Source: an uncultured Acidobacteriota bacterium
Lineage (GTDB): Bacteria; Acidobacteriota; Terriglobia; Terriglobales; SCQP01
Assembly: GCA_937898755.1 (NCBI GenBank)
Contig: CALEJU010000025.1
Location: 16,000-79,999 of the forward strand
DNA length: 64,000 bases
Reading direction: 5' to 3'
Of the stretch, positions 2,412-44,700 are shown piece by piece. The notes under the pieces are model-generated. The model was given only the letters and a program-made list of their open reading frames with translations, was not told the origin of the DNA and made no database searches. Positions within the stretch are counted from its first letter, which is position 1, and each line of letters starts with the position of its first letter. The position numbers were made by a program, and so were the translations under genes.

Positions 2412-3113
2412 GTGGTAATGGCAAATGGCTGTGAGTCACAGGCCGGAGGGCTGCCCAATCGGGGCAAACCCTGGCTTGCGGCATACACCCGTCCTCGACA
2501 TGAGCAAAAAGTTTTGCGGTATTGGCAGTCGTTCGGCTTCGATGCATTTCTTCCGACCTACAAGAGCTGGCGGAATTGGAGTGATCGCCGCAAGGTTCTC
2601 CAGCTCCCATTGTTTCCCGGCTACGTTTTTGTGCGCATCACAGAAGAAGAGCGGCAATCCGCGGTGCAAGCCCCTGGGCTTTTATGGTTTGTTCATAATG
2701 CGCGTAAAATCCTCTCCATTGACGAGCAGGAATTGCACGCAATCCGGCGTCTGCTGGACAGTGGATTCGAGTACGGACCGCTTGCCAGCGTCAGCGTAGG
2801 CGACGAGGTGGAAATAGTTTCGGGAGCAATGACCGGGCAGCGGGGGTGCCTGTTGAGCAAAGATCCTGGATCAATTGTGCTCAGGATATCGGCCATCAAC
2901 GGGTTCGTGCGCGTCAAGGTGCCAGATCCATCATGGCTCGCGCCGGTTGCTCGCCACCGTGTGCGATCACCCGCGCTCAGTCCCGCAGATCATTGCCCTG
3001 CTTCAGTACCCGTTGCGGCCGCAGTCGAGGCGGGAATTCCGATCACGTTTATTTCGCGGGCCTCAATAAATGACCAGCCAGACAACAAATCAACGCCATT
3101 CAAATCGGTCTGA
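2412..3113 (+). CDS. UpxY/RfaH-type NusG-family transcription antiterminator
   Basis: WLAAYTRPRHEQKV, PTY..W..R...LPLFPGYVFV (NGN domain), VGDEVEIVSGAMTGQRG (KOW); GGAGG RBS upstream; heads a long polysaccharide operon. Confidence 0.88.
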   Translation: MVMANGCESQAGGLPNRGKPWLAAYTRPRHEQKVLRYWQSFGFDAFLPTYKSWRNWSDRRKVLQLPLFPGYVFVRITEEERQSAVQAPGLLWFVHNARKILSIDEQELHAIRRLLDSGFEYGPLASVSVGDEVEIVSGAMTGQRGCLLSKDPGSIVLRISAINGFVRVKVPDPSWLAPVARHRVRSPALSPADHCPASVPVAAAVEAGIPITFISRASINDQPDNKSTPFKSV

Positions 3114-3251
3114 GCGCCAACGACTGAGCCTCCGTCCGGTCCATCGCAACCGCGAGCTGCAGTTGCGGATAGAAACCGACATCAGTGGCAACATTCCACC
3201 CTGGGACGGCCGTCCACTCTGATCGCACTCAGCAAAGATCTCTGACTCACC

Positions 3252-5498
3252 ATGAAGACCCTACTCCGTCAGCGCGAAGCCGATCCTGACGTCAAACTGC
3301 CGTCGGCCCGGGTTGTACCCGACATGGTGGCCTTGTCAAGCAATGGCCCAGAGCCGGAAGACTCGCTTCCGCTCTACCTCTACTGGGGGTATGTCCGCCG
3401 GTATCTGTGGCAGATCGTGACGTTGATCATGGTGGTCACCACTGCCGCCACCATCTATGCCCTGTCGCGTCCCAAGCTATACGATGCCATGGCGATGGTC
3501 CGGATCTCGCCCTTCGGAACCCACGTCACCGACGCTAACGAAACGACTCCCGCAAGTGCCATCTCGCCGACGACGTTGATTGGCACCGCCAGCGAAATGG
3601 TCATCAGCCCGGCGGTCGTCTTAAAAACCATTGACGACCTTCATCTGGATAACGAGCCCACCCTGCTCACCGCGAAGGATCGGGCCAGTCTGAGTCCCCA
3701 GAAGCAGCGGGAACTTCTTCTGCGCGAAGTCACCGAGTCGATCAACGTCGAACGCCCTCCCATGACCCTGCTCATGGAGATTCATTTCCGCGCTCGCCGA
3801 CCGGATCTGGCCGCGCGCATCGCCAACGGACTGGCCCAGTCGTTCCTGACGGTTGAATATCAGAGCCGAGTGCAGGAGATTCGCGCCAGTTCGCAATACA
3901 TGTCGGCTCAACTGGATGACCTGCGGGCCGCCATGGAGCGCGCGCAGAGGGCGCTGGTGAACTACGAAACCACGCATAACGTCATTAATCCGGATGATAA
4001 AACCAACATCTTCCAGTCGCGCCTGGCTTTCCTCAATACGGAGGTCGCGCAAGCGCAAGGGGCGCGCATGCAGGCGGAAGCGGAATACCACGTTCTGGCC
4101 AGCGGCGGATTGCCCGCCGTGCTCTCCGCCAAACTGAGCGAAACGCTCCAGCCGCTGGTGGCCCGGCTGCGGCAGGACAAACTGCGACTGGCCGACATGA
4201 GCGCCGTGTATGGACCGAATTATTTCCTGTACACGCAGCAACAGGATCGGGTGCGCAATGACGAGGAGTTGCTGGCAAAGCAGGTGCAGGGCGTCGTGGA
4301 GCAGGTTCAAAGCCGCTACCAGCAGGCCCTCCGGAATGAGCATCTTGTGCAACAGGAAATGGATCGCCAGAAGGCGGTTCTGGACGACTTCAATCTCCGT
4401 GCCATCCGTTATACCGAACTGAAGGCGGATGCCGACAGCACCTCGACGCTTTACTACGATCTCCTGCGCAAGCTCAAGGAATCGAATGTCGGTGCGGAGT
4501 TCCGCTCCGATGACATCCGCGTGGTCAATCCCGCCCTGCCCAACCCGATTCCGTCCTATCCCAACGTGCGGCTTATTTCACTGTTGGCTCTCCTCTGTTC
4601 CACGGCGCTGGGAATCGGTGGCGCGATTCTCGTGGGAACGCTCGACCGCAGCGTGGTTGACCCGGAACAACTCGCGCAATGGCTTCATCTGCCCGTGCTC
4701 GCCTCCGTGCCTCTTGCTGCCGGAGCAGCCCTCACGCTGCGACGCTCGCCCGTCCTGACCGCGGGTGCTCCGGCGGAGGAAACGGCAGGATTGCTGCCGA
4801 CCCTGGAGAAGTCCGCTACCCAGTCGTCCGTGTTCGGTGAGGCGGTGCTGTCGCTGCGATCGGCGCTGCTCTTCGGAGCGCCCGAAAATATGACCGTCCT
4901 CGCGGTCAGCAGTTCCGTGCCCGGCGAAGGCAAGAGCACCCTCGCGGCCCACCTCTCCATTGCCTTTGCCGATATGGGTAATCGAACGGTTCTGGTCGAC
5001 GCCGATATGCGCCGACCCAACGTCCACCGGCTCTTTGGTGTCACCAACCGGGCAGGGTTGGCGAGCGTACTTCGCGGCCGTTGTCCCCTGGACGAGGCCC
5101 TGGTCTCGGTTGCCGGGCGTCCTAACCTGTGGATCCTGCCCGCCGGCACCGCCACCGGCGACACGACGGAATTGCTTTTACTCGGTCTCGCCGATGTCTT
5201 GGACGGGTTGCGAAGCCGCTTCAGCCTGGTGCTGATTGACTGTCCGCCGGTGCTGGGATTCGCGGACAGCCCCGCCGTGGCGAATGCTGCCGACGCCACC
5301 CTCATGGTGGTACACGCGGGCAAGACCGATCGCAACGTTCTGAAAGCGGCCGTCGCCGCGCTCCGGCACGCCCGCGCGCAGATTGTCGGCATCGCTCTCA
5401 ATCAGGTCGACCACAAACTCAGCAATTACTACGGATATTATCGCAACTACGCCAAGTCCGGGTATTACGCCGCGACTCCGGACGACGCCAATGATTAA
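3252..5498 (+). CDS. wzc: Polysaccharide co-polymerase / BY-kinase (Wzc, GumC-type)
   Basis: Two TM segments flanking a coiled-coil region; Walker A SSVPGEGKST, LVDADMRRP, LIDCPP; C-terminal Tyr cluster YYGYYRNYAKSGYY. Confidence 0.93.
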   Translation: MKTLLRQREADPDVKLPSARVVPDMVALSSNGPEPEDSLPLYLYWGYVRRYLWQIVTLIMVVTTAATIYALSRPKLYDAMAMVRISPFGTHVTDANETTPASAISPTTLIGTASEMVISPAVVLKTIDDLHLDNEPTLLTAKDRASLSPQKQRELLLREVTESINVERPPMTLLMEIHFRARRPDLAARIANGLAQSFLTVEYQSRVQEIRASSQYMSAQLDDLRAAMERAQRALVNYETTHNVINPDDKTNIFQSRLAFLNTEVAQAQGARMQAEAEYHVLASGGLPAVLSAKLSETLQPLVARLRQDKLRLADMSAVYGPNYFLYTQQQDRVRNDEELLAKQVQGVVEQVQSRYQQALRNEHLVQQEMDRQKAVLDDFNLRAIRYTELKADADSTSTLYYDLLRKLKESNVGAEFRSDDIRVVNPALPNPIPSYPNVRLISLLALLCSTALGIGGAILVGTLDRSVVDPEQLAQWLHLPVLASVPLAAGAALTLRRSPVLTAGAPAEETAGLLPTLEKSATQSSVFGEAVLSLRSALLFGAPENMTVLAVSSSVPGEGKSTLAAHLSIAFADMGNRTVLVDADMRRPNVHRLFGVTNRAGLASVLRGRCPLDEALVSVAGRPNLWILPAGTATGDTTELLLLGLADVLDGLRSRFSLVLIDCPPVLGFADSPAVANAADATLMVVHAGKTDRNVLKAAVAALRHARAQIVGIALNQVDHKLSNYYGYYRNYAKSGYYAATPDDAND

Positions 5499-17490: not shown

Positions 17491-19046
17491 AGATGCCGTC
17501 GTTGCAACGTCTGGAGCAACGGACGCAAGCCGTCCCCATACGGTTGCTCATCAGTCTACTCGGCACCGTTTCCCGGGCGGCGCTCTCTTTTTTGAACGCA
17601 ACCTTGGTGGCCCGCGGCCTGGGCGCGGGCGGATACGGAAATCTCAGCTTTCTTCTCGCCAGCTTCAGCGGCCTTGGGGTGCTGTGGGATGCGGGGGTTT
17701 CGCAGGCCTTCTTTACAGGCATCGCCGGCCGTCGTCGAGGCCCGCGAATCTTCTTCCTCTACTCGGCATGGCTGGCGGTTCAATTTTCGCTGACGGTCAC
17801 CTGCATTGCCGTGATCTTTCCTGGCCGTTGGATGCACGCGGTCTGGCTCGGCCAGGAGCGACCGGTCATCCTTCTCGCGTTCCTCGCGAGTTTCCTGACC
17901 AGTCAAGGGTGGAACACCGTTCAGGTCCTCGGCGAAGCGGTGCGCAAGACCAGCACTGTCCAGTTGGCAACCGTACTCCGGGCTGCCGCCCACACCCTGC
18001 TGCTGCTGCTGGCGATCCATTTCGTCCGACTCTCGGTGTCCATTGTCTTTGGGTTTCTCATCTTGGAATATGTCGTGGGCATGGCAGTCGTCGCGCCCCG
18101 GTTTCTGAAGGCGAATATCGACCGGGAAGGCGCGGATGTGGACTGGAAGACCCTGGTTCATGAGTTTGCCGCCTACTGCACGCCCATGGTGGGCTATGCC
18201 ATCCTGAGTTTCGGTTACAAATTTGTAGACCAGTGGCTGCTGCAGCGCTATGGGGGCTCCATCCAGCAGGGCTATTTTGCTTTCGCGCAGCAGTTCGTCA
18301 ACGTCGCACTCCTCGCCACGGCGGCCATCATTAATGTCCTCTTCAAGGAACTGTCCGAGGCCTCGAAGCGTGGCGATCACGAACGAGTCGCTCGTCTCCA
18401 CCGCCGATTTTCCATCAGTCTCTATGCTTTCACGGCTTGGCTGATCGCCCTGCTGTTGCCTTGCAGCCGAACCATACTTCAGCACACAGCCGGACCCCAA
18501 TTCACGGCCGGAGCCATGGTATTTGCGGTCATGCTGACGTTTCCGCTTCATCAGTGCCTGGGTCAGATCAACGGGACGTTTTTCTACGCCACTGGGAATA
18601 CACGCACGCTGGCTTGGCTCGGACCGATCGGCATGGGCCTCAGCATCGTGGGTGGCTACTTTACCTTGGCGCCCCGCAATGCTTGGTTGCCCGGGCTGGG
18701 CCTGGGCGCAACCGCCCTCGCGGTGAAAATGGTCGTGGTGCAAGTGGTGGCGGTCAATCTCCAGCTTTGGTTGATTGCACGCCATCAAAAACGACACTAC
18801 CGCGGCTTCTTTCAACTTATGTTCTTCCCGCTGCTTGGCTTGTCGTGGCTGGCCCAGCACGCCCTGGCCGGAACAACGATCCCTCAAATAGTCCAGCAGG
18901 GTCTGGCTGGGCTGCTCTACACCAGCGTAACCGTGGCGCTGATCTTTCGTTTTCCGCTATGGGTGGGCCTAAGCCCAGAGACGATGAGGACAATGTGGGT
19001 TTGGTGCTTGAAGCACGGTTGGCCAACAAAAGCATCGGCGCTTTGA
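17487..19046 (+). CDS. wzx: Wzx-type polysaccharide flippase
   Basis: Polytopic hydrophobic protein; ARGLGAGGYG N-terminal pattern; FVDQWLL..YGG..QQGYFA. Confidence 0.8.
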   Translation: MKMPSLQRLEQRTQAVPIRLLISLLGTVSRAALSFLNATLVARGLGAGGYGNLSFLLASFSGLGVLWDAGVSQAFFTGIAGRRRGPRIFFLYSAWLAVQFSLTVTCIAVIFPGRWMHAVWLGQERPVILLAFLASFLTSQGWNTVQVLGEAVRKTSTVQLATVLRAAAHTLLLLLAIHFVRLSVSIVFGFLILEYVVGMAVVAPRFLKANIDREGADVDWKTLVHEFAAYCTPMVGYAILSFGYKFVDQWLLQRYGGSIQQGYFAFAQQFVNVALLATAAIINVLFKELSEASKRGDHERVARLHRRFSISLYAFTAWLIALLLPCSRTILQHTAGPQFTAGAMVFAVMLTFPLHQCLGQINGTFFYATGNTRTLAWLGPIGMGLSIVGGYFTLAPRNAWLPGLGLGATALAVKMVVVQVVAVNLQLWLIARHQKRHYRGFFQLMFFPLLGLSWLAQHALAGTTIPQIVQQGLAGLLYTSVTVALIFRFPLWVGLSPETMRTMWVWCLKHGWPTKASAL

Positions 19047-19281
19047 ATCACTGGTCGGAAATGAGTGTGGGTCGGAATCAATCCTCCACAATCTTAAATC
19101 GTAGTAAGAGTTGTTCAAGTCCCGATGGATCTCAATGTGAAGGTGGTGACGGATGAGCGCCGATCCGATCGCTTGCCGCCGGGGCGACACCTATGATGGT
19201 ATTAGCTCAAACTTTCGGAAGGTGCTGGCTGAAAAGTTCGAAGGATGATCTACGTTTGTCGAAGCGAAGGACTCTGCACGA

Positions 19282-20154
19282 ATGCCAAAGATTCGCACTC
19301 TTGTTCGAAGCGCCATACTTGCCGTGCCCACTGTCTTCGTCCGCTCCTACGAGCGGGCTGTCGCCTCAATGCGGCCAGCATTGAAAGGTGTGGTGTGCGG
19401 TCATATTGTTGACGATATTTTTACTCGCACGGAGATTGTACACCATAATAATATCGATCTTCGCCTTTCGTGTCCGAACTCCACGACGGTGTTTCGTGCG
19501 CGAACTTTCTCGCAAAAGGAACCCGAGACACTGGAATGGGTCGACGGCTTTATGCCAGATTCCGTCTTTTGGGATATCGGAGCAAATGTCGGATTGTATT
19601 CCATTTATGCTGGACTGCGACACTCGGGGCTGCGGGTATTTTGTTTCGAGCCATCCGTTCTTAATGTCGAATTGCTTGCACGAAATATTGTTCTCAATGG
19701 GGTTAAGAGCCAACTTTGTATTGTTCCAACACCACTGAGTGATAAGAGCGGTCCGAGCGTGTTTCGCCTGGGAAAGCAGGATCGCGGCGGTGCGTTGTCC
19801 GCATTTGGTGTCGACTTTGGATACGATGGACGCCCTATTATTGCTGACCTAGATTTTGAACTCCTGGGTTTCGCCGCCGACGATTTACTCGGATATGGAG
19901 TGCCGCCGCCTAATTATATTAAACTCGACGTGGATGGAATCGAGCACCTGATACTCCGCGGAGCAGGGAAGATACTGGCGAACAGGACTGTGAGATCTGT
20001 TCTCGTTGAGGTGAATGATGATTTTGCCGAACAGAGAGACCAAGTAGCCATGATCCTCACGGCGAGCGGCTTCCGTCTACGGCAACATAGTCACGGAAAA
20101 ATGTTTGATAACTCGGTGTTCGGGAATACGTTCAACAACATTTGGGTGCGCTAA
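19282..20154 (+). CDS. FkbM-family methyltransferase
   Basis: FWDIGANVGLYS, FCFEPS, PNYIKLDVDGIEHLILRG; visibly AT-richer than the flanks. Confidence 0.9.
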   Translation: MPKIRTLVRSAILAVPTVFVRSYERAVASMRPALKGVVCGHIVDDIFTRTEIVHHNNIDLRLSCPNSTTVFRARTFSQKEPETLEWVDGFMPDSVFWDIGANVGLYSIYAGLRHSGLRVFCFEPSVLNVELLARNIVLNGVKSQLCIVPTPLSDKSGPSVFRLGKQDRGGALSAFGVDFGYDGRPIIADLDFELLGFAADDLLGYGVPPPNYIKLDVDGIEHLILRGAGKILANRTVRSVLVEVNDDFAEQRDQVAMILTASGFRLRQHSHGKMFDNSVFGNTFNNIWVR

Positions 20155-20377
20155 ATTGAGCTTAGCGGGAGATGAGCGGACAGTTCAGAGGTGCTGAGCG
20201 TCGAAGCGAGGGCGTTGCCCCGACGGAGCAGGTCAGTGGCGGGTGTCACCGCGTGGTTCCGGGTGGGGTTTGGAATGTCCACCATTCGCCTGAGCTATCA
20301 TCAACCGGCAGGGACCGCGCTGACGTTTTCCTGATTCTTCAGCAAATACACAGAAAGCGCGTGGGGAGAAACTGTAC

Positions 20378-22302: not shown

Positions 22303-23346
22303 GTGACCGTGTCAACACGCACGGCTGACGCCGAAAAAATGAAGGAAAACGACATCCGTCCGCAGGCTCTGTTCGAGAGATATTTGCAGCTTGCCCAGCG
22401 GGACGCAGAGACGCACTTTGCCGACAAGTCCGGCTTCGTGACGGTGGCGTGCCCCGCCTGTGGAAACGACAGCTCCCGTCCCGGACTGGAAAAACTCGGT
22501 TTTCACTATGTGGTGTGCCGCGCCTGCGACAGCCTCTATCTCTCTCCGCGGCCCGACCGGGAAGCGCTGGATCATTATTACCGCACTGGCGAGGCGGTCA
22601 AGTTCTGGTCGTCCCACTTTTTCCGGGAGACCGCCGAAGCGCGCCGAGTGCGCATGTTCCGGCCCCGCGCCGAACAGATTGCCGGGCTGGCCCGCGGTCA
22701 GGGGACCGGCCAGCTGGCCGACTTTGTTGACGTCGGCTCCGGTTTCGGGATTTTCCTGGAAGAGATGGCGCGGCAGAACTGTTTTGCCAAGGTGACCGGA
22801 ATCGAACCCGGTCCGGACCTGGCCGAGACATGTCGCCAGCGTGGCTTTCCGATCCTGCAAAAGCCGGTGGAAGCCATCGCTGAAGACGAACTCCAGGTCG
22901 ACTTCGCCACTGCTTTCGAAGTCATTGAGCACGTCTTCGATCCTCGAGATTTTCTGCTCGCCATTCGCCGTATTCTGCGCCCGGGTGGGGTTGTTTTCTT
23001 TACCACCCTGACGGTCAGCGGCTTCGACATCCAGGAGTTGTGGGAGCATTCCAACAGCGTTCACCCGCCCCACCACATCAACCTGATGTCGGTGCAGGGG
23101 TTTCGGCAACTGGTCGGGCGGGCGGGTTTTGTCCTGCAGGATCTCAGTACCCCGGGGAAGCTGGATGTGGACATCGTGCGCAACGCGTGGCAAGCCAATC
23201 CGTCCATTCCGCGCTCCCGCTTTGCCGATCAGCTGCTCCGGCACACCGATCCCACGGTTCAACAGGAGTTACAGGACTTTCTCCGCCGACACAGGTTGAG
23301 CTCGCACGTGCAAGTGGTTGCCGTCCGTTCAGAACAGATATTCTAG
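22303..23346 (+). CDS. Class I SAM-dependent methyltransferase with N-terminal Cys-cluster
   Basis: CPACG..CRACD; VDVGSGFG; FEVIEHVFDP; PPHHINL; its TAG stop overlaps the CTAG site of the IS630 left end. Confidence 0.85.
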   Translation: MTVSTRTADAEKMKENDIRPQALFERYLQLAQRDAETHFADKSGFVTVACPACGNDSSRPGLEKLGFHYVVCRACDSLYLSPRPDREALDHYYRTGEAVKFWSSHFFRETAEARRVRMFRPRAEQIAGLARGQGTGQLADFVDVGSGFGIFLEEMARQNCFAKVTGIEPGPDLAETCRQRGFPILQKPVEAIAEDELQVDFATAFEVIEHVFDPRDFLLAIRRILRPGGVVFFTTLTVSGFDIQELWEHSNSVHPPHHINLMSVQGFRQLVGRAGFVLQDLSTPGKLDVDIVRNAWQANPSIPRSRFADQLLRHTDPTVQQELQDFLRRHRLSSHVQVVAVRSEQIF

Positions 23347-23400
23347 TGTCACGAGTCAGAAATAGCTTACAATAATTACGCGGGTGGTGTTGAATCACGC

Positions 23401-23982
23401 ATGGCAATTTCACGTGGCCGGCCCAAGCAGGGGAAGCTGGTGGTGAGCGCGGCGCAGGCGGAGCGGTTGCGGCAGTTGGCGCGGCAAAGCCGGCGGGTGC
23501 GTTCGGTCGCCTTTCGGGCGCGGATCGTCCTTGGGTGCGCGGCGGGCGAGAGCAACAGCGCCGTAGCGCGAAGGCTGAAGACGACCAATTTCACGGTTGG
23601 CTTCTGGCGTCATCGCTTCATCGCGGGAGGCTTGGAGGCGCTCGGGGACCAGGCGCGTCCGGGCGCACCGCGCCAGATCGGCGACGAAGCGATAGAGCGG
23701 GTGGTGCGTCTGGCCCTGGAGACCACGCCAAAGGCGGCGACGCATTGGAGCACGCGCCAGATGGCGGCCCAGACCGGTCTGAGCCAATCGACCATCAGCC
23801 GCATCTGGCGTGCCTTTGGGCTACAGCCGCAGCGCAGCCAGACGTTTCAGCTCTCGTCGAGCGATCCCCTGTTGGTGGAGAAAGTTCGCGACATCGTGGG
23901 ACTGTACATGAACCCGCCGGACCACGCGGTGGTGCTGTGCGTGGACGAGAAGAGTCAGATCCAATTGGGGGTCGGGGCGTGA
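23401..23982 (+). pseudogene. IS630 transposase, truncated just after the first catalytic Asp region
   Basis: RARIVLGCAAG, WRHRF, RPGAPR, THWSTR, RIWRAFGLQP, DIVGLYMNPPDHAVVLCVDEKSQIQ then stop; rest of DDE domain missing. Confidence 0.92.
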
Positions 23983-24025
23983 ATGGAATGTCGAAAAGGG
24001 CAGAACTAAGTAAGGACAGCCGAGG

Positions 24026-24811
24026 ATGAGCAAACCAGCATTGAACAATGTGTCGGAAAAAGAAGCCATCGAAGTCAATTTCTGGCGAGACAACCCCATC
24101 GAGCGGCCCGAATCGGCTGCACTTGAGAATATCCTCAGCAAATGCGCGGAGGCGCGCATTTTTCTGGAGAAGTTGAGCGCCTTCCAGAGCTTATTCGCCT
24201 CCGCCCGCGACGTTCTCGAACTTGGCGGCGGGCAGTGTTGGGCGTCCTGCATTGTTAAGCGCCAGTTTCCATCGGCGCGGGTGGTTGGTACGGATATCAG
24301 TCCCTTTGCCGTGGCGTCGGTCAATAAATGGCAGCACATGTTCGGCGTCAAAATCGATCAGGTGGCCGCCTGCCGAAGCTACGCCACTCAGTTTGAAAAC
24401 TCTTCGTTCGACTTGATTTTCGCGTATGCGGCGGCGCACCACTTTGTTAAGCAGCGTCGGTCGCTGGTCGAAATATCGCGCCTTCTTCGGCCCGGTGGGG
24501 CTGCGTTATATTTGCATGAGCCAGCCTGTCGCCAATATGTCCATCGACTTGCGGTAGCCCGCATCAAATTGAAGCGTCCCGAGGTACCGGAAGACGTTCT
24601 TGTCTACCCGCATTTGCGCACACTTGCCGCCGAAGCCGGGCTCAACGTGAAGACCCACTTCGCGCCGACTCTCACGAATAGAGGTCCCGTCGAAACGATT
24701 TACTATTACATTTTGCGGAAGGCCGCTTTTCTTCAGGATTTACTGCCATGTACGGTCGATATCGTGTTCCGGAAACCGGACAACACGGTGGCCGTCGAGG
24801 CGCCCATTTAA
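24026..24811 (+). CDS. Class I SAM-dependent methyltransferase (inside IS630 ends)
   Basis: VLELGGGQCW, VVGTDISP, FDLIFAYAAAHH, LLRPGG..LHEP. Confidence 0.85.
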   Translation: MSKPALNNVSEKEAIEVNFWRDNPIERPESAALENILSKCAEARIFLEKLSAFQSLFASARDVLELGGGQCWASCIVKRQFPSARVVGTDISPFAVASVNKWQHMFGVKIDQVAACRSYATQFENSSFDLIFAYAAAHHFVKQRRSLVEISRLLRPGGAALYLHEPACRQYVHRLAVARIKLKRPEVPEDVLVYPHLRTLAAEAGLNVKTHFAPTLTNRGPVETIYYYILRKAAFLQDLLPCTVDIVFRKPDNTVAVEAPI

Positions 24812-24907
24812 AATAGAAATCAATGACTCGGGACACTAGCCTGAAACTCTGCTGCGTCCGGCGGCGTCCGGCTTGGCCGCGTGCGTCCCCGTGCCATCCC
24901 CTTATTC

Positions 24908-26851
24908 ATGCCGCAGGTCTCGATCATCATCCGCACATTTAACGAGGAAGCCCGTCTTCCGGAGCTGCTGGCGGCTTTGGAATGTCAGACCTTGCGCGAT
25001 TTCGAGATCGTCGTGGTCGACTCCGGCTCTTTCGACCGCACGCTGGAGATCGCCCGACGGCAGGCGGACCGGCTCTTCTCCATCAATCGGCACGACTTTA
25101 CCTTCGGCTACTCGCTGAATGTCGGCATTCGTGGCAGTAGCGGCCGGTTGGTGGTGATTGTGTCGGCTCATACGGTTCCTGTGTCGGAGGACTGGCTGGA
25201 GCGGATCACCGCTCCCTTCACCGACCCGGACGTGGCCATGGTGTACGGCCGCCAACAGGGCCGCCATGAGTCCAAGTTTAGTGAATGCCTCGACTTCGAA
25301 CGGTCGTTTGGACCGCATCCGAAGACGCTGCGTCCCCCGGACTGTTTGGCCAACAACGCCAACTCGGCGGTGCGCCGCGAGTTCTGGCAGCAGCATCCAT
25401 TCGATGAAAGCCTTCCCGGCTTGGAAGACGCGGAATGGGCCCAATACTGGGTGGATCGTAACTTCAAAGTCGTCTATGAGCCGGCCGCCTCGATTTACCA
25501 CATCCACACCGAAAGCTGGCGGCAGGTGCAGCATCGCTACTACCGGGAAGGGCAAGCTGCCCACTGGATCGGCATCCGGGGCCGGCGCCATACAGTCGCA
25601 GAGGTGATGCGCGAGGGCCTGTATTTCTCGTCTGATGTGTTCTACGCCTTGCGTGGGCGGCGCCTCTGGTCCACAATCGGAGAAATTGTCCGTTTCCGCG
25701 GTCACAAGCTCGTGGGGACACTGCGCGGCATCTGGACTGGAGCAAAAATGGAAAACCCCATGGAACGCGAACGTGTGCTCTTTCAGCGCGATTATTCCGC
25801 TTTCGTGATCCAGGGACCGGGCAAGGCCTCGCTCACGCGCGTCCCGTCGCCGGAGCTTCGCCCCAGCGAGGTATTGATCCGGGTGGCCTATGAGGCCATC
25901 TGCGCCACCGATCTGGAGATTCTGGATGGCCACTTGGGATACTACAAGAACGGGTTGGCTCACTATCCCATCACCCCGGGTCACGAATTCTCCGGCACCA
26001 TCGCCGCGATCGGCGCCCGTGTGGACAAGTTCAAGGTGGGCGACCCGGTGGTCGTGGAGTGCATTCAAGGCTGTGGAGACTGTGCGGCGTGTCTGGCGGG
26101 CAACGCCATTGGCTGCCTTCAGCGGGCCGAAGTTGGCGTCATCGGCCGCAATGGCGGATATGCCGAATACATGGTGACCGCGGGCCGATTCGTGCACCGC
26201 ATTGCCGACGGAGCTTCCCTGCGGTCGGCATGCCTCTGTGAACCCATCGCCGTGGTGCTGAAGGGCCTGAGAAAACTCGATACGGTGATCGCGGGTTCGT
26301 CCCGGCATTGTGGGGTTGTCGGCGCCGGCCCGATCGGGCATCTGGCCGCCCAACTCCTGCATGGTCGTGGTCATCGGGTTACCGTCTACGATCGCAATCC
26401 CCAGCGCTTGAAGTTATTCGACGGCTCACCTATTGAGACGGACCAGGATCTGGCGAGCTTGGCGCAGGTGGACGCCCTGGTCGAGGCGACTGGAGACCCC
26501 GAAGCGCTGGATTTCATGCTGCACCACTCCCGACCGGGCGCCACCCTCCTCCTGCTGGGATTGCCCTATGCCCGCCGCGAATTCAGTTTTGAAGCCGTCG
26601 TGGGCTATGACAAGACCGTCATCGGATCGGTCGGCAGTACGGCCATCGACTTTGCCGAAGCCGCCTGTCTGCTTCCGAAGCTGAAGCTTGACGCATTCTT
26701 CCAAAAGATCATTCCATTCTCACAAGTCGAGTCGGCCCTGGCCCTGGCACGGACGGGGCAGCACCTGAAAATCATCCTGGAAGTCGATGCCGCCGCCGGT
26801 GAGCAACGGAGACAAGCGGAGCACGAGCGCTCGTCTTTGCTGCCGGCATGA
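24908..26851 (+). CDS. GT2 glycosyltransferase fused to a Zn-dependent (MDR) dehydrogenase
   Basis: N-half: SIIIRTFNE, VVDSGS, NANSAVRR, EDAEWA; C-half: CATD, GHEFSG, CGDCAAC..C, GAGPIG; one continuous frame. Confidence 0.88.
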   Translation: MPQVSIIIRTFNEEARLPELLAALECQTLRDFEIVVVDSGSFDRTLEIARRQADRLFSINRHDFTFGYSLNVGIRGSSGRLVVIVSAHTVPVSEDWLERITAPFTDPDVAMVYGRQQGRHESKFSECLDFERSFGPHPKTLRPPDCLANNANSAVRREFWQQHPFDESLPGLEDAEWAQYWVDRNFKVVYEPAASIYHIHTESWRQVQHRYYREGQAAHWIGIRGRRHTVAEVMREGLYFSSDVFYALRGRRLWSTIGEIVRFRGHKLVGTLRGIWTGAKMENPMERERVLFQRDYSAFVIQGPGKASLTRVPSPELRPSEVLIRVAYEAICATDLEILDGHLGYYKNGLAHYPITPGHEFSGTIAAIGARVDKFKVGDPVVVECIQGCGDCAACLAGNAIGCLQRAEVGVIGRNGGYAEYMVTAGRFVHRIADGASLRSACLCEPIAVVLKGLRKLDTVIAGSSRHCGVVGAGPIGHLAAQLLHGRGHRVTVYDRNPQRLKLFDGSPIETDQDLASLAQVDALVEATGDPEALDFMLHHSRPGATLLLLGLPYARREFSFEAVVGYDKTVIGSVGSTAIDFAEAACLLPKLKLDAFFQKIIPFSQVESALALARTGQHLKIILEVDAAAGEQRRQAEHERSSLLPA

Positions 26852-44217: not shown

Positions 44218-44327
44218 AAAATAACTTTTGGCCAGCGCTATACGACTTTACCCGGAGCGGGTCCGCCGTCGCCACGCACTCGCGCTCCTAAGAGAAACAG
44301 GCGGACAGACGGCTGCGCCGCTGGATT

Positions 44328-44457
44328 GACCTGTCCCGCGCTTCCGTTCAGGTGAGACTACAACAGACTACCTCCGGTCCGCCCCCTTTTGTAGCGGGGA
44401 TGGAGGGGTGGAGCAAGGAGCCGGGATTTGAGGCCTCTTGCCTCACATCTGGGCTGT
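44328..44457 (-). repeat. Non-coding structured element, copy B (inverted relative to copy A)
   Basis: Reverse complement aligns to 2172-2300; abuts IS630 coding sequence at ~44457. Confidence 0.8.
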
Positions 44458-44700
44458 GGCGCCATCGGTTCATAGCTGAGGGCTTGGATGGGTTGGTGGA
44501 TGAGCCGCGCCCCGGAGCGCCCCGCAAGATCGGCGACGCTGTGATTGAACGGGTGGTGCGGCTGGCGTTGGAGACGGAACCGAAAGCTGCGACCCCTTGG
44601 AGTACACGGAAGATAGCCGCCAAAATGAGCTTAAGCCAATCGACCATCAGCCGCATTTGGCGTGCCTTCGGACTGCAGCCACAGCGGCGATCCCGCCTCT
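44458..44700 (+). mobile_element. IS630 transposase internal fragment
   Basis: WRHRFIAEGL..DEPRPGAPRKIGD..RIWRAFGLQPQR, homologous to 23605-23835; both ends missing. Confidence 0.88.

Follow-up and report, generated by a model that had tools for sequence, protein, structure and literature searches.

A probable non-autonomous IS630-family derivative carrying a methyltransferase gene in a polysaccharide locus of an uncultured Acidobacteriota bacterium

MIC231, which derives from IS231 and is found in the Bacillus cereus group, is an example of a mobile insertion cassette (MIC). This class and that of the transporter insertion sequences (tIS), which keep their own transposase, were defined in PMC3129680. 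Among insertion sequences (ISs) of the IS630 family, duplication of a TA target is established and the N-terminal paired helix-turn-helix (HTH) domain binds the termini; furthermore, a mini-ISY100 with a kanamycin gene was moved by a separately supplied transposase, the sole protein needed (PMC2170065). The same paper cites Tenzen and Ohtsubo (1991) for the preference of IS630 for TA in CTAG. Here, we analyze a 1.5-kb unit located in a window of 64,000 nucleotides from an uncultured Acidobacteriota bacterium (assembly GCA_937898755.1, contig CALEJU010000025.1, positions 16,000 to 79,999 of the forward strand). This unit, which lies between two genes of a polysaccharide locus, is probably a non-autonomous derivative of an IS630-family element of about 1.15 kb, the DDE-encoding interior of which has been replaced by DNA encoding a methyltransferase, and would now be a single-copy relic.

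The ends of the unit are those of an IS630-family element. Its 16-nt left terminus (CTAGTGTCACGAGTCA, 23343-23358) and the complement of its right terminus (24824-24839) match at 15 of 16 positions, and both lie in a CTAG context (23343-23346 on the left, 24836-24839 on the right). Across the whole window, these are the only two terminus matches at two mismatches or fewer; 100 shuffles gave a mean of 0.02. A TA duplication is only 2 bp long and is weak evidence taken alone; the same C-TA...TA-G flanks surround nearly all full-length relatives. The TAG stop codon of the upstream gene (23344-23346) consists of the flanking TA and the first G of the element. Direct reading of the sequence predicts that the joined flanks, ttcTAGcct, keep an identical stop, and therefore that the insertion altered no reading frame. 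When the unit is excised in silico, the CTAG is clean, the upstream stop does not change and the spacer to the downstream gene measures 69 nt. The initial annotation had described 15-bp repeats (14/15) in CTAG around 1.5 kb, the duplication of TA by IS630 and a left TA placed inside the stop codon of an upstream gene that stays intact. All three points hold: the repeat match is refined to 15/16 over 16 nt, the duplication agrees with PMC2170065 and with the flanks of the relatives, and the TAG is rebuilt in the occupied site and identical in the empty one.

When the 193-aa protein encoded by the left part of the unit was used to scan reference genomes, more than 500 relatives were obtained, the best 80 of them at 54-63% identity. 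Full-length relatives are 1139-1200 bp long and have termini of the form cTAGTGTC(C/A)(T/C)GAGTCAGAAAT... One of them, L221, is a 1154-bp full-length element with a 378-aa frame; at the left terminus (TAGTGTCACGAGTCA), it and the unit are identical. In reference genomes, the right terminus (TAGTGTCCYGAGTCATTGATT) is found at 33 loci. Nearly all of these lie within CTAG, and the hosts are Verrucomicrobiae, Actinomycetota, Acidobacteriota and Streptomyces. Hence, the terminal repeats of the unit are typical of the family on three counts: their 15/16 match, a left end shared with L221 and a right end common to these 33 loci. Since every variant base in the ends of the unit occurs in natural copies, these ends look competent as far as sequence can tell.

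This group of ISs often yields deletion derivatives. Pairs of termini resembling MITEs (miniature transposable elements with inverted repeats), 147-167 bp in size, belong to the same group (L197, L198, L205 at 291-451, L218 and L223 at 111-275) and are hosted by Burkholderiaceae, Verrucomicrobiae, Kiritimatiellae and Acidobacteria metagenome-assembled genomes. Moreover, a 413-bp internal-deletion derivative is present in a relative from the same family as our genome (L012 1330-1742, genome G016).

Two further features of the relatives were observed. In full-length copies (L043 at 3001-4095 and the right ends of L214 and L221), the transposase frame reads through the right repeat, and its stop codon is the duplicated TA plus the G of CTAG, i.e. 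it is supplied by the insertion site. Besides, a locus with a 3351-bp terminus spacing (L202, 1923-5273) was considered as a second carrier of a passenger and rejected, the IS being split there by a serine-recombinase insert. This insert of about 2.1 kb encodes a 563-aa large serine recombinase and is located inside the same VDEKSQIQ motif at which the transposase of the unit is interrupted, about 15 nt from the breakpoint of the unit. This proximity may be a coincidence or may reflect a fragile or targeted spot.

The transposase of the unit has lost its catalytic half. Its 193-aa open reading frame (ORF) belongs to the IS630 family, as it matches NCBIfam NF033545 (transpos_IS630) with 112.7 bits (cut-off, 100 bits) over model positions 2-156 of 299 and shares 54-66% aa identity with full-length relatives. 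Pfam matches are restricted to HTH_32, HTH_28 and HTH_29, and DDE_3 is not matched. In comparisons with more than 80 full-length relatives, homology invariably stops at residue 188 (...VDEKSQIQ), out of about 364-378 residues in a complete protein, which agrees with the earlier remark that the transposase stops after DEKSQIQ. For instance, the ORF shares 59% identity with the transposase of L043 over residues 1-188, and DDE_3 spans residues 176-320 of the latter. The final five codons (LGVGA) and the TGA stop of the truncated ORF are foreign DNA; the GC content at third codon positions (GC3) of the remnant is 0.82. No remnant of the DDE half was detected in the unit or in the rest of the genome, a distant element on contig C36 aside, and no DDE-coding sequence is left in any frame of the unit, so that a frameshifted two-ORF transposase was rejected. 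The unit thus carries no DDE catalytic domain that could make it autonomous. The 193-aa remnant presumably lacks two of the three catalytic residues of DDE transposases. It could still bind the ends through its HTH domain, but would be unable to cut DNA.

The unit starts with 621 bp from the left side of the IS, continues with about 830 bp of foreign DNA and closes with about 43 bp from the right side of the IS (Table 1); each of its two junctions is located with a precision of a few bases. The left arm aligns to positions 1-31 and 223-602 of the full-length L221 with 76-84% nt identity, and all nucleotide alignments to relatives stop at position 620 of the unit. Contigs from sequencing run X1, which contain a relative about 96% identical, proceed past 23964 with GCGCTGGATCG (A-L-D-R), i.e. 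the normal continuation, and the left junction is therefore placed between 23964 and 23965. On the other side, blastn aligns the unit, from position 1452 or 1458 to 1495, to the right ends of six relatives (L221, L214, L222, L210, L213 and L199) with 82-89% identity and a 2-nt indel. Read inward, the right end of the unit is GATTTC-TA-TTTTAAATGGGCGCCTCG, versus GATTTC-TTTTAAAAGGGCGGATCG in L214. Since homology reaches inward beyond the 15-nt repeat, the right arm extends over about 43 nt (24796-24838). The foreign segment stands in for about 511 bp of IS interior, and the absent parent positions (about 603-1113) correspond to the DNA that encodes the DDE_3 domain. A search for repeats found none bordering the foreign segment; capture of the methyltransferase gene on a nested mobile element was rejected for this reason.

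Table 1. Features of the unit and of the two adjacent genes (positions in the window)
Feature	Position	Strand	Remarks
Left TA of target duplication	23344..23345	.	within CTAG; first two bases of the upstream TAG stop
Left arm of IS630-family element	23346..23964	+	repeat GTGTCACGAGTCAGAAAT..., 55-nt leader, transposase codons 1-188
Truncated transposase ORF, 193 aa	23401..23982	+	HTH half and first ~12 residues of DDE_3
Foreign segment, ~830 bp	23965..24795	+	no homology to any IS630 relative; leader and methyltransferase core
Class I S-adenosylmethionine (SAM)-dependent methyltransferase ORF, 261 aa	24026..24811	+	Pfam Methyltransf_11/25/12/31
Right arm of IS630-family element, ~41 nt + TA	24796..24836	+	repeat ...AATCAATGACTCGGGACAC; overlaps end codons and stop of the methyltransferase
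Right TA of target duplication	24837..24838	.	within CTAG (24836-24839)
Upstream operon gene, different class I methyltransferase	22303..23346	+	same gene call on metagenome contig L106
Downstream operon gene, GT2 glycosyltransferase fused to Zn-dehydrogenase	24908..26851	+	starts 69 nt past the unit

Among described classes, this structure fits MICs better than tIS, and it is neither a MITE nor a composite transposon. Like MICs, the unit has IS-type repeats around an unrelated passenger gene, without a working transposase, and its movement would need a cognate transposase in trans. However, unlike MIC231, it derives from IS630/Tc1-mariner and not from IS4/IS231, and it retains an open HTH-only remnant of 193 aa. 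Unlike MICs, it is also a single copy without any sign of trans-mobilization (neither sibling nor empty site in public data, nor cognate transposase in the genome), and its passenger ORF ends within the right arm of the IS. As in tIS, the passenger lies within one pair of IS ends and not between two IS copies; however, since the DDE domain is deleted and the transposase is cut at residue 188, the unit is not autonomous. Consequently, the term transporter-IS-like used in the initial annotation gives way to MIC-like and non-autonomous.

The unit shares its short repeats, TA duplication and N-terminal HTH half with IS630 and ISY100 of the Tc1-mariner superfamily, and its CTAG preference with IS630. 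Like mini-ISY100-kan, it has a passenger gene between its ends, but it is natural and not engineered, and its transposase is cut after the first residues of the catalytic domain. Internal loss with retention of both termini is also seen in IS630-family MITEs; however, these are small and non-coding, whereas the unit reaches 1.5 kb and has two ORFs, one of them foreign. The unit has a single left terminus and a single right one, without inner ends, which does not correspond to a composite transposon. To our knowledge, no IS630-derived MIC has been described, and we found no paper that settles this point.

The passenger gene is, judging by its composition and by the distribution of its homologues, foreign to this lineage. 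The GC content of the foreign segment is 0.55 and the 24-25 kb bin has the second-lowest GC content in the window. The GC3 of the methyltransferase gene, 0.65, is below that of all five neighboring cluster genes checked (0.72-0.78). No second copy of the gene is present in the genome, and a homologue was found in only one of 27 genomes of the family, with 52% identity. Among about 15 billion proteins, the exact methyltransferase occurs at this locus only and the next relative is 67% identical, which was also the outcome of the suggested search for the same methyltransferase unit elsewhere.

These data bear on the alternative that the methyltransferase gene is native to the locus and was trapped by two IS630 copies inserted at the flanking CTAGs, followed by two inner deletions that left one outer end of each copy. 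The TA/CTAG flanks do not tell one insertion from two, some homologues of the gene are located in polysaccharide clusters (L023, L107, L108), and the locus contains a second, decayed IS630 fragment (44429-44695). However, such a history would require four events that all spared the gene and left 61 nt upstream and at most about 15 nt downstream of it. Neither an inner IS end nor additional flanking DNA remains, and removal of the unit as a whole restores the clean CTAG, the upstream stop and the 69-nt spacer. Given also the low GC3, we regard the trapping of a native gene as unlikely.

The passenger is predicted to be functionally complete and chimeric only at its extreme end. The ORF is preceded by a 61-nt leader with an AAGGA ribosome-binding site 9 nt upstream of the ATG and, as had been noted, it is intact, with 12 nt between its end and the 15-nt repeat. 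When the protein is aligned with 12 homologues, it keeps all 53 invariant columns (53/53), including the LELGGGQ SAM motif. The family core extends up to residue 251 (RKP), and the tail, DNTVAVEAPI, is not conserved; the last five codons or so and the TAA stop lie in IS-derived DNA, in a frame that differs from that of the transposase. Likewise, the AlphaFold model has a pLDDT (predicted local distance difference test score) of 91.9, with low confidence for the final 10 residues or so. The Pfam matches (Methyltransf_11/25), the invariant LELGGGQ and the confident model all identify a class I SAM-dependent methyltransferase.

As to the substrate of this enzyme, sequence searches give only generic class I small-molecule methyltransferases. 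A fold search retrieved class I methyltransferases of generic small-molecule types at E ~1e-13. The matches include the sugar O-methyltransferases RebM and AtmM and equally TleD, MitM and phosphoethanolamine N-methyltransferases, and none of the specific NCBIfam models matched at cut-off. Some homologues are encoded near sugar-nucleotide or polysaccharide genes, i.e. GDP-mannose dehydratase/epimerases in L023, an MBOAT protein in L107 and a sugar transferase in L108; others (L024, L025) are found in unrelated contexts. The protein may methylate the product of the locus. However, the qualifier glycan-modifying previously attached to it was a guess from context, since sequence and fold are generic and the contexts of homologues are mixed.

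The initial annotation also considered the unit able to deliver a glycan-modifying enzyme into operons when a transposase is supplied in trans. According to this view, it would be a trans-mobilizable IS630 cassette by which such a methyltransferase is now moved from operon to operon whenever a cognate transposase is present. Its two termini look intact and correspond to natural variants, an IS about 96% identical is present in environmental run X1, and the MITE-like derivatives of the same group must have moved in trans. The transfer of the mini-ISY100 passenger by a transposase supplied in trans (PMC2170065) is a precedent for such movement. However, DNA, protein and terminus-pattern searches all indicate that the unit is present as a single copy in the genome. 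Besides the unit, these searches retrieved nothing in this genome but the decayed fragment (44429-44695) and, on contig C36, an intact but distant IS630. The latter (L004, C36:90295-91347), which has a 374-aa frame and CTAG flanks, is the sole intact IS630-family element of the genome (G000); it is 45-49% identical, has different termini (TAGTGTAGTGCGGCT, cTAGTGTAGTGCGGCT) and belongs to a different subgroup. Hence, no cognate transposase for the ends of the unit was found in the 88-contig assembly, and no contig end of the genome carries the terminus of the unit.

Searches outside the genome were equally negative. The joined flanks, which represent the empty CTAG site, and the 30-nt left terminus gave no match in metagenome contigs, and the 22-nt left terminus gave none in reference genomes. 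The locus was not found in 40 relatives by DNA search or in 27 family genomes by protein search, and exact look-ups of both flanking proteins led to one metagenome contig only (L106). Run X1 contains relatives of the IS and lacks this locus; the methyltransferase and the downstream gene were found in no sequencing run. Besides, no protein between 67% and 100% identical to the methyltransferase exists among the 15 billion or so examined, and sequence and fold give only generic answers about its substrate. With one copy, no sibling, no empty site and no cognate transposase, the proposed mobility finds no support, and an active vehicle for this gene is distinctly unlikely. A more elaborate version of it seems very improbable: a cognate transposase from an IS630 circulating in the community would move the cassette among CTAG sites of surface-polysaccharide loci and thereby diversify glycan methylation, and the HTH-only protein would bind the ends and tune or block this movement.

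An artefact of assembly, in which a metagenome assembler would have created chimeric junctions at repeated IS sequences, also has to be considered, since the 88-contig assembly is of the metagenome type and IS elements are common sites of misassembly. However, the separately filed metagenome contig L106 (JGI) has the same structure, with differences at 6 of 10,393 positions and none within the unit. Furthermore, the sequences in which the two junctions are located have no other copy in this genome, both reading frames are open and a perfect CTAG target is formed by the flanks. We therefore consider an artefact extremely improbable.

The origin that we favor for the unit as a rebuilt IS would be as follows. 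An IS630-type transposase would have put the element at a CTAG between two co-oriented genes of the polysaccharide locus, the element having been either an IS that was intact on arrival and rebuilt later, or a ready-made cassette from the start. The replacement of the interior would most likely result from one illegitimate-recombination event, i.e. the repair, with template switching, of a break within a single IS copy, and the present unit would be a deletion that contains filler DNA. As no transposase of the genome fits its ends, the unit would now be a fixed, single-copy relic. Several points weigh against this scenario. Multi-copy ISs are often absent from metagenome-assembled genomes, and a transposase missing from 88 contigs is no proof of its absence. 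The donor locus of the methyltransferase gene was not found in public data, so that the recombination route is inferred. Insertion followed by replacement is not distinguishable from the arrival of a finished cassette. Finally, the promoter-like GTGTCA-16-TACAAT at the left end is within chance expectation.

The + strand encodes all genes of the cluster, and the unit has the same orientation. At its right end, no terminator-like site was detected; the two weak sites of this type found in the methyltransferase gene do not exceed chance expectation. This orientation and the lack of a terminator at the right end suggest that the methyltransferase gene is probably co-transcribed with the operon. 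Read-through of the operon, or the promoter-like site of the left end, would probably account for the production of the protein.

Further features of the polysaccharide locus and of the rest of the window were noted. The fragment at 44429-44695 is a decayed IS630 transposase gene that covers residues 60-148 or so with 71% aa and 76% nt identity and has no termini; its presence in the same locus indicates that IS630-type elements hit this locus more than once. An inverted pair of 87-nt repeats with 82% complementarity (2225-2311 and 44317-44403), whose copies are 42 kb apart, was also detected. One of these copies adjoins the decayed fragment, and the pair may represent another small element, either as its ends or as copies of it. 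The lowest GC content of the window is found at 19000-20200 (0.50 vs about 0.62), suggesting a further recent acquisition within the glycan locus. For the GT2-dehydrogenase fusion encoded downstream of the unit, the closest proteins in reference genomes are about 30% identical and match the dehydrogenase half only.

The unit is a clear example of the conversion of a bacterial IS of the Tc1/mariner type into a gene-carrying cassette: its catalytic domain has been swapped for a complete foreign enzyme gene, and no host gene has been broken. As found, it is a single fixed copy that illustrates a known process and reveals no new one. Accessory enzymes could reach polysaccharide loci through cassettes of this kind, among other routes.

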